Shown in pieces: positions 55,607 to 58,600 of a stretch of 64,000 bases of DNA. The translations under genes were made by a program, and so were the position numbers. The notes under the pieces were generated by a model that worked only from the letters and a program-made list of their open reading frames with translations, was not told the DNA's origin and did no database searches. Origin of the DNA: Shigella phage sb1. The stretch lies in sequence record PQ666539. One strand, given 5' to 3'. The stretch's first letter is position 1, and the number at the start of each line of letters is the position of its first letter.

Positions 55607-58600
55607 CTGGCCGAGATTAAAAGAAAGTTCAGAGCAGAAGATGGTCTGGACGCAGGTGGCGATAAAATAATCAACGTAGCTTTAGCTGATCGTACCGTAG
55701 GAACTGACGGTGTTAACGTTGATTACTTAATTCAAGAAAACACAGTTCAACAATACGATCCAACTCGTGGATATTTAAAAGATTTTGTAATCATTTATAA
55801 TAATCGTTTTTGGGCTGCTATAAATGATATTCCAAAACCAGCAGGAGCTTTTAATAGCGTACGTTGGAGAGCATTACGTACTGATGATAACTGGATTACC
55901 GTCTCATCTGTGTCATATCAATTAAAATCTGGTGAAGCTATTTCGGTTAACACTGCAGCTGGTAATGATATTACATTTACTTTGCCATCTACCCCAATTG
56001 ATGGTGATACTATCGTTCTCCAAGACATTGGAGTAAAACCTGGAGTTAACCAAGTTTTAATTACAGCTCCAGTGCAAAGCATTGTTAATTTTAGAGGTCA
56101 GCAAGTACGTTCAGTTTTAATGACTCATCCAAAGTCACAGATGATATTCATTTTTAATAATCGTTTGTGGCAAATGTATGTTGCTGATTATAGCAGAGAA
56201 GCTGCAATTGTTACTCCATCGACTGCATATCAAGCACAATCTAATGATTTTATCGTGCGTAGATTTACTTCCGCAGCTACAATTAATATTAAACTTCCGA
56301 GATTTGCTAATCATGGAGATATTATTAATTTTGTTGATTTAGATAAATTAAATCCGCTTTATCATACAATTGTCACGACATATGATGAAACAACTTCAGT
56401 ACAAGAAGTTGTAACTCATTCTATTGAAGGTCGTACATCGATTGATGGTTTCTTGATGTATGATGATAGTGAAAAATTATGGAGATTGTTTGACGGGGAT
56501 AGTAAAGCACGTTTACGCATTATAACGACTAATTCAAACATTCGTCCAAATGAAGAAGTTATGGTATTTGGTGCGAATAATGGAACAACTCAAACAATTG
56601 AGATTCAGCTTCCAACTAATATTTCTGTTGGTGATACTGTTAAAATTTCCATGAATTACATGAGAAAAGGACAAACAGTTAAAATCAAAGCTGCCGGGGA
56701 AGATAAAATTGCTTCTTAAGTTCAATTGTTGCAATTCCCAAAGCGCTCAGAATATCCGCCTGAAGCTGAATGGGTGACTGTCCAATAATTAGTTTTTAAC
56801 GGTGAAACTAATTATGTTCCAGTTTTACAGCTTGCTTATATAGAAGATTCTGACGGAAAATACTGGGTTGTACAGCAAAACGTTCCAACTGTTGAAAGAG
56901 TCGATTATTTAAATAATTATAATAGAGCAAGATTAGGCGTGATTGCTTTAGCTACACAAGCTCAAGCTAACGTCGATTTAGAAAATTCTCCACAAAAAGA
57001 ATTAGCAATTACTCCAGAAACATTAGCTAACCGTACTGCTACAGAAACTCGTAGAGGTATCGCAAGAATAGCAACTACTGCTCAAGTAAACCAGAACACT
57101 ACATTCTCTTTTGCTGATGACCTTATCGTCACTCCTAAAAAGCTGAATGAAAGAACTGCTACAGAAACTCGCAGAGGTGTTGCTGAAATTGCTACGCAGC
57201 AGGAAACTAATACAGGTACTGATGATACTACAATCATCACTCCTAAAAAGCTTCAAGCTCGACAAGGTTCTGAAACATTATCGGTTATTGTAACTTTTGT
57301 ATCTACCGCAGGAGCTACTCCAGCCTCTAGTCGTGAATTAAATGGTACAAATGTTTATAATAAAAATACTAATAATTTAGTTGTTTCGCCTAAAGCATTG
57401 GATCAGTATAAAGCTACTCCAACGCAACAAGGTGCAGTAATTTTAGCAGTTGAAAGTGAAGTAATTGCTGGACAAAGTCAAGAAGGATGGGCAAATGCGG
57501 TTGTAACGCCAGAAACGTTACATAAAAAGACATCAACTGATGCAAGAATTGGTTTAATTGAAATTGCTACGCAAAGCGAAGTTAATACAGGAACTGATTA
57601 TACTCGTGCAGTCACTCCTAAAACTTTAAATGACCGTAGAGCAACTTAAAGTTTAAGTGGTATAGCTGAAATTGCTACACAAGTTGAATTCGACGCATGC
57701 GTCGAAGATACTCGTATCTCTACACCATTAAAAATTAAAACTAGATTTAATAGTACTGATCGTACTTCTGTTGTTGCTCTATCTGGATTAGTTGAATCAG
57801 GAACTCTCTGGGACCATTATACCCTTAATATTCTTGAAGCAAATGAGACACAACGTGGTACACTTCGTGTAGCTACACAAGTTGAAGCTGCTGCAGGAAC
57901 ATTATATAATGTTTTAATAACTCCTAAAAAGCTTTTAGGTACTAAATCTACCGAATCACAAGAAGGAGGTATTAAAGTTGCAACTCAATCTGAAACCGTG
58001 ACTGGAATGTCAGCAAATACTGCTGTATCTCCAAAAAATTTAAAATGGATTGTGCAGAGTGAACCTACTTGGGCAGCAACTCCATCCATAAGAGGATTTG
58101 TTAAAACTTCATCCGGTTCAATTACATTCGTCGGTAATGATACTGCTGGTTCTACACAGGACTTAGAACTATACGAGAAAAATAGTTATGCAGTATCACC
58201 ATATGAATTAAACCGTGTATTAGCAAATTATTTGCCATTAAAAGCAAAAGCTGCTGACGCAAATTTATTAGATGGTCTAGATTCATCTCAGTTCATTCGT
58301 AGGGATATTGCCCAGACAGTTAATGGTTCACTAACCTTAACCAACCAAACGAACCTGAGTGCCCCTCTTGTATCATCTAGTACTGCTACGTTTGGTGGAT
58401 CAGTTTCAGCAAATAGTACACTAACTATTTCTAATACTGGAACGGCAACTCAATTAATTTTTGAGAAAGGACCTCAATCTGGAACAAACCCAACGCAGAC
58501 AATGACTGTAAAAGTGTGGGGAAATCAATTTAGCGGGGAGTCAGATACAACACGTTCTACTGTATTTGAAGTTAGTGATGAAACTTCTAGTCATTTTTAT

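Follow-up and report, generated by a model that had tools for sequence, protein, structure and literature searches.

The in-frame TAA at codon 394 of gene 34 in a T4-like Shigella phage segment: one of many G:C>T:A changes that are probably sequence errors

Gene 34 of T4-like phages encodes the proximal subunit of the long tail fibre (PMC3004832, PMC5537660). In the stretch of DNA analysed here, a 64 kb segment of Shigella phage sb1 (PQ666539) that extends from gp14 to gp37 and is called the window below, this gene is interrupted by an in-frame TAA at 56786-56788. The question is whether this codon marks a mutant or decaying fibre gene, a stop codon read as an amino acid, or a defect of the recorded sequence. 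Judged from comparisons with related genomes, the TAA is very probably an error fixed in the consensus as deposited or assembled, without any biological effect.

The window is a Tequatrovirus (T4-like) segment, and its best public matches, pSs-1-like phages, are 95-97% identical to it; no identical record was found among these best matches. Exact look-ups of the gp24 and gp20 proteins of the window gave no match either, and a 35-mer around the stop, with G or with T at the site, matched nothing exactly in viral, metagenome or genome collections; as the GAA version is missing too, these scans carry no information. Gene 34 aligns with T4 gp34 (NP_049860, 1289 amino acids) over all 1289 codons with 0 gaps and 91.2% amino-acid identity, and with gp34 of phage Ec_YwIITB1, also ungapped, with 95.3% amino-acid identity (tblastn). 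The gene order rnh-34-35-36-37 is the same in T4, pSs-1, KNP5 and Ec_YwIITB1. Homology and gene order thus identify the gene as gp34 by descent, although as written it is not a functional copy: the open reading frame is not intact, starting with CTG and containing four internal TAA codons. Taken literally, the sequence would specify a gp34 that lacks its ATG and ends after 370 residues, and would give fibreless, non-infective particles.

An earlier note on this DNA, made from the sequence alone, had described the TAA at 56786-56788 as the second of four in gene 34 and as consistent with a change from GAA. The codon is indeed present as codon 394, with the other internal TAA at codons 371, 681 and 1184, and the frame encodes exactly the reading that was given for it, ...EAEWVTVQ(stop)LVFNGETNYVPV.... 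The alignment to T4 gp34 bears out the proposed change, since the codon is GAA in T4 and in four close relatives (Ec_YwIITB1, pSs-1, KNP5 and sb2), a single G>T away from TAA. Glu is also found at this position in UGKSEcP2, JN02 (Mosigvirus) and JK45, and more distant relatives carry Val (IME08) or Ser (Erwinia phage FBB1 and Klebsiella phage 15882-3-4, a Jiaodavirus). A stop occurs here in 0 of the 11 relatives compared, and the stop at 56786 is private to the window. Derivation from GAA holds for the flagged codon and not for all the stops of the gene, the first of which (56717) is TCA>TAA.

Protein conservation persists on both flanks of each of the four stops, so each is a point substitution within a gene that is otherwise intact, and none marks the edge of an open reading frame. 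Nor is gene 34 singled out by them: it offers 145 sites at which G:C>T:A would create a stop, and the four stops observed fit the 1.85 expected at the window-wide rate of this change (Poisson probability of four or more, P=0.12). An event specific to gene 34 was ruled out by this expected-count test. Codons 434-439 of the gene (56907-56922) also carry three C>A changes within 16 nucleotides (nt), giving Ser>Tyr, Ser>Tyr and Thr>Asn, an example of mild clustering.

The flagged stop, real as it is in the sequence, is not particular to gene 34. When the 87 annotated coding sequences of the closest relative, Ec_YwIITB1, were compared with the window by tblastn, 32 premature in-frame stops were found in 23 genes (25 TAA, 4 TGA and 3 TAG), together with 0 frameshifts. 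The affected genes include terS, terL, gp18, gp22, gp23, gp27, gp29, gp48, gp51 and uvsY, as well as alt, rnlA, nrdA, gp32, gp34, gp35 and gp36, early and late genes alike. All these stops but one (31/32) were made by G:C>T:A, the exception being TTA>TAA (T>A) in gp23.

The stops belong to a much larger excess of the same change. Substitutions were polarised with four relatives (Ec_YwIITB1, pSs-1, KNP5 and sb2) over about 63 kb common to them, and 924 were private to the window, 292 of them G:C>T:A (149 C>A and 143 G>T). The corresponding private G:C>T:A counts in the relatives are 52 for Ec_YwIITB1, 18 for pSs-1, 41 for KNP5 and 43 for sb2. The window thus holds some 250-290 extra changes of this class, about 1.3% of all its G:C pairs, and its G+C content in the same columns is 35.84% versus 36.0-36.3% in the relatives (0.2-0.4 points lower). 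The changes are spread all along the window and are balanced between C>A and G>T; a runs test (z=-1.0) revealed no blocks by strand. Nor do they favour any sequence context: up to 5 nt to either side, base frequencies are those of the background.

In coding sequence, G:C>T:A comprises 215 missense, 30 stop and 28 silent changes, compared with 217, 32 and 24 expected in the absence of selection (chi-square p=0.67), and their distribution over codon positions 1, 2 and 3 is 107, 98 and 68 (121, 91 and 61 expected). The proportions of missense, nonsense and silent changes are those of random expectation; selection has never acted on this layer. A:T>G:C changes are silent in 215 cases and missense in 34, with 209 of 249 at third codon positions, and the remaining substitution classes likewise fall mostly at third positions, as under strong purifying selection.

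Two further features of the window concern other substitution classes. Private A:T>C:G changes are about twice as numerous as in the relatives (64 vs 20-30), the counts of the other classes mostly resembling those of the relatives, and G:C>A:T changes have a larger missense share than in the cleanest relatives. The window may contain a smaller second error component.

According to the explanation that we favour, the ancestral GAA was changed by G>T to TAA at codon 394 as one of the window-wide G:C>T:A transversions. These form a layer over an otherwise normal, well-conserved T4-like genome, in which random, unselected changes disable 23 genes, many of them essential. The layer is taken as error because a plaque-forming phage cannot carry nonsense codons, here of all three kinds, in the genes of terminase, tail sheath, capsid, baseplate, single-stranded DNA-binding protein and ribonucleotide reductase.

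Part of the layer recurs in other records. With the ancestral base defined as that on which Ec_YwIITB1, pSs-1 and KNP5 agree, derived G:C>T:A alleles are common to the window and sb2 at 16 sites (0.63 expected by chance), to the window and sb4 at 18 (2.0 expected) and to sb2 and sb4 at 12 (0.45 expected). Of the alleles that the window has in common with sb2 or sb4, 27 are missense, 3 nonsense and just 1 silent, the rest being non-coding; the nonsense sites lie in gp18 (4125), nrdA (48399) and a spanin-like gene (43019). With sb3 the window shares five alleles, mostly silent or non-coding, like natural variants. The sb4 record (PQ666542) shows genes split in the same way (gp14, gp15, terS, rnlB, uvsW, gp27, gp28, gp48, alt, ligase, rnlA and nrdA); G:C>T:A makes up 117 of its 449 private changes, and 22 stops derived from it occur in 49.5 kb. 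The sb2 record (PQ666540) has two C>A stops within gene 34. Per 49.5 kb, the window contains 224 G:C>T:A changes versus 152 in sb4 and 48 in sb2. As identical unselected alleles recur in these records, we infer that the window and the Shigella phages sb2 and sb4 were sequenced in one batch, and the identity of alleles across assemblies suggests that aberrant templates or reads came from a common pool, or else that the error is strongly site-specific. Both phages belong to a single study, in which four phages were isolated from a lake in Kolkata, libraries were made by enzymatic fragmentation and run on a NovaSeq 6000, and assembly was done with SKESA (PMC11993411). In it, ADG1 (PQ666539), also named sb1, is reported to have the lowest G+C content (35.16%) and 285 proteins, compared with 254-255 for AKR2 and CDR3, whose genomes are cleaner.

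Aligned to positions 1-49500 of the window, sb4 shows a further error class, A:T>T:A, which accounts for 16 stops, 50 missense and 18 silent changes and is not seen in the window. Both error classes of sb4 are enriched in nonsense changes, and the error spectrum of sb4 is related to that of the window without being identical. Short, pure clusters of G>T/C>A in the window (8954-8981, 13682-13733, 23036-23058 and 43015-43042) are shared with sb2 and sb4, with flanks otherwise identical to clean relatives. Some clusters are nested: in 8930-9000, for instance, the changes of sb2 are a subset of those of sb4, and these a subset of those of the window. Such nesting might be explained by aberrant templates drawn from a common pool or by errors that are strongly site-specific.

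As to the physical cause of the error, three candidates may be named: damage to guanine in the template (8-oxoguanine, 8-oxoG, or depurination) that became fixed in a library of low complexity, an error of instrument or channel, and cross-talk between libraries. A link to two-colour sequencing chemistry, in which G>T and C>A would both be a gain of green signal, is conceivable. Errors of long single-molecule reads are unlikely, with 0 frameshifts in about 85 genes, and phasing-type errors that copy a neighbouring base were discarded, as the new base is not enriched at flanking positions. Strand-specific damage blocks at the scale of reads were rejected as well, the global runs test given above being not significant. 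In the known library artefact, 8-oxoG pairs with A during the polymerase chain reaction and yields G>T/C>A changes; these have a low allele fraction, prefer CCG>CAG and are biased by read orientation, G>T being seen in read 1 and C>A in read 2 (Costello et al. 2013, PMC3616734). The classical form of this artefact, which arises on shearing, fits the window in its substitution class and fails in context and, it seems, in allele fraction.

Some observations weigh against error as the explanation. The G:C>T:A changes are mildly clustered, with 25 gaps between neighbours of 10 nt or less versus 13.1 expected (P=0.0016), and regionally uneven along the window (chi-square p=0.02). Unlike those of the 8-oxoG artefact, they stand in the consensus, evidently as the majority base, and show no CCG/CGG preference, C at -1 having a frequency of 0.17 (background 0.17) and G at +1 one of 0.16 (background 0.17). 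Identical "errors" in three assemblies of phages that are 3-4% apart are hard to obtain from independent random noise; recombination could, in principle, have spread them as real alleles. A rival proposal is that the G:C>T:A changes were real in the sequenced DNA and never replicated under selection, in guanine-oxidised or hypermutated genomes (by reactive oxygen or a G-acting host defence) or in defective genomes carried at high multiplicity and partly shared by recombination. The identical unselected alleles, in part nested, that the window has in common with sb2 and sb4 far more often than expected by chance would suit it, as would the local clustering and a hint of same-strand runs, a weak tendency seen in 18 of the 25 pairs no more than 10 nt apart (p=0.04). 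It would, however, demand that stops predominate at 32 sites in 64 kb, with gp23, gp18, terL and gp32 among the genes affected, in a plaque-forming stock, where recombination of the T4 type would split off and eliminate every lethal allele, yet neither nonsense nor missense changes are depleted at all; the signal is missing, moreover, from clean records that other laboratories obtained for close relatives. We consider this proposal very unlikely. Its more specific form, guanine-directed damage or hypermutation (by oxidative stress or an unknown G-acting host defence) in the packaged DNA of co-circulating T4-like phages, seems very unlikely; if it were true, recombination between genomes would account for the identical nonsense and missense changes in the three isolates. 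That a real genome was altered by computer, through simulated noise or deliberate corruption, would agree with changes that are context-free, strand-symmetric, limited to substitutions and in near-perfect accord with no selection. Random noise would not, however, reproduce the same base change at the same 16-18 sites of two independent GenBank records, nor would clustering and regional unevenness be expected of it, and a single substitution class would be odd for simulated noise, so this origin too is very unlikely.

The remaining explanations give the stops of gene 34 a biological meaning. If TAA were read as Glu, through a suppressor transfer RNA (tRNA) or an altered code, gene 34 would be fully translated, and most of the in-frame TAA do align with Glu, several of them in late structural genes, with a superficial likeness to recoded phages. 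TAA also aligns, however, with Ser, Tyr and Leu, TGA with Gly (four times) and TAG with Glu (three times). Native terminators are in place in 76 of 77 cases, 52 of them TAA and that of gene 34 among these, and early and late genes are affected alike. The window contains 0 tRNA genes, the T4-like tRNA cluster lying outside it, and the ten tRNAs reported for sibling phages are all ordinary, with no suppressor anticodon. The same mutational class has, besides, produced 215 random missense changes alongside the stops. Mixed amino acids and stop types, retained terminators, the indifference to early and late genes and the lack of a tRNA gene in the window lead us to exclude recoding, whose probability we put as negligible. 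We find it just as hard to credit a genuine nonsense mutant of gene 34, of laboratory or natural origin, whether a conditional-lethal of the ochre type or a tail-fibre gene in decay. The loss of the ATG and the presence of four stops within one gene might suggest such a mutant, but the stop count matches the window-wide rate, 22 other genes are affected, neither indels nor further marks of decay are seen, and the sequence after each stop is still conserved.

The premature stops and the landmarks of gene 34 are listed in Table 1. Besides the stops, three start codons that are ATG in all relatives have been lost: that of gene 34 (A>C), that of gene 15 (575-577), which became ATT by G>T, and that of a small hypothetical gene on the minus strand (39750-39752), which became ATT likewise by G>T.

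Table 1. Gene 34 and the premature stop codons of the window, with the codons from which they derive
Feature	Coordinates	Strand	Remarks
Gene 34 as written	55607-59476	+	1289 codons and terminator; pieces of 370, 22, 286, 502 and 105 codons
Gene 34 start codon	55607-55609	+	CTG in the window, ATG in all four relatives (A>C)
Gene 34, first TAA, codon 371	56717-56719	+	TCA (Ser) to TAA via C>A at 56718
Gene 34, flagged TAA, codon 394	56786-56788	+	GAA (Glu) to TAA via G>T at 56786
Gene 34, third TAA, codon 681	57647-57649	+	from GAA
Gene 34, fourth TAA, codon 1184	59156-59158	+	from GAA (pSs-1: GAG)
Gene 34, native terminator TAA	59474-59476	+	kept in T4 and every relative
Terminase small subunit, TAA	1858-1860	+	from GAA
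Terminase large subunit, TGA	2975-2977	+	from GGA
Terminase large subunit, TAA	3461-3463	+	from GAA
Tail sheath gene 18, TAA	4125-4127	+	from GAA; identical stop in sb2 (PQ666540)
Scaffold gene 22, TAA	10042-10044	+	from TCA
Gene 22, TAA	10312-10314	+	from GAA
Major capsid gene 23, TAA	11617-11619	+	from TTA (T>A); sole stop not G:C>T:A
uvsW.1, TAA	19075-19077	+	from GAA
uvsY, TAA	20141-20143	-	from GAA
Gene 51, TAA	21609-21611	+	from GAA
Gene 27, TGA	22634-22636	+	from GGA
Gene 27, TAA	23075-23077	+	from GAA
Gene 29, TGA	23897-23899	+	from GGA
Gene 48, TAA	25684-25686	+	from TAC
Small hypothetical gene downstream of gene 54, TAA	27586-27588	-	from TCA
alt-like ADP-ribosyltransferase gene, TAG	29449-29451	-	from GAG
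Small hypothetical gene, TAA	35336-35338	-	from TAC
Small hypothetical gene, TAA	39687-39689	-	from GAA; its ATG (39750-39752) is ATT
"Rz-like spanin" gene (pSs-1 annotation), TAA	43017-43019	-	from GAA; identical stop in sb4 (PQ666542)
"Inhibitor of host transcription" gene (pSs-1 annotation), TAG	43196-43198	-	from GAG
"Inhibitor of host transcription" gene, second TAG	43382-43384	-	from GAG
RNA ligase 1 (rnlA), TAA	44238-44240	-	from GAA
rnlA, TGA	44391-44393	-	from GGA
nrdA, two adjacent TAA	48397-48402	-	GAA GAA to TAA TAA; second (48397-48399) also in sb4, which reads GAA TAA
Gene 32 (single-stranded DNA-binding protein), TAA	53210-53212	-	from GAA
Gene 35, TAA	60109-60111	+	from GAA
Gene 36, TAA	61230-61232	+	from TCA

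A few differences from related genomes lie apart from the stops. The terminator of gp51 (22053-22055) is changed from TAA to CAA in both the window and sb3; the next codon is TGA and the protein gains one residue, which looks like an ordinary natural variant. In the Ec_YwIITB1 record (PQ356294), the major capsid gene, hoc and nrdB are each annotated in two pieces (11348-12909, 15896-17325 and 45863-47037), and the window and pSs-1 are collinear and unsplit at these three genes, save for the TAA of the window at 11617. T4 has group I introns in td and nrdB; in the window td (49332-50189) and nrdB (45280-46455), both on the minus strand, are collinear with the uninterrupted genes of pSs-1, which indicates that these introns are absent.

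Annotators of such a sequence risk splitting gene 34 and 22 other genes, calling them pseudogenes or suspecting recoding, none of which is warranted. Polarising substitutions with several relatives and comparing missense, nonsense and silent counts in each class with the no-selection expectation constitutes a reusable test that can tell error layers from real nonsense or recoding. The defect seen here recurs in kind, and partly at identical sites, in at least two GenBank phage records that are public (PQ666542 and PQ666540), which is relevant to comparative work and to the use of such phages in therapy.

Among known systems, amber mutants of T4 gene 34 lose the proximal half-fibre, have no long tail fibres and do not adsorb. 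Such classical mutants carry a single stop and were selected and maintained on suppressor hosts, whereas the window has four TAA and a lost ATG in gene 34 together with 28 stops in 22 other genes, and no suppressor host could rescue it because TAA, TAG and TGA are all present together. In recoded phages, such as crAss-like and Lak phages, TAG or TGA is reassigned and in-frame stops lie within conserved structural genes; one stop then corresponds to one amino acid, the codon is dropped as a terminator and a suppressor tRNA is present. The window resembles these phages in having stops in conserved structural genes, but its TAA codons align with several amino acids, TAA is kept as a terminator, and no tRNA gene lies within the window. 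With the Illumina artefact caused by 8-oxoG it has in common an excess of the C>A/G>T class (292 versus 18-52 in the relatives) and, if our explanation is correct, a non-biological origin (PMC3616734). Compared with the sb2 and sb4 records, the window has more G:C>T:A changes and is free of the A:T>T:A class of sb4; like them, it is a T4-like genome of the pSs-1 type in which defects consisting only of substitutions split conserved genes (PMC11993411).

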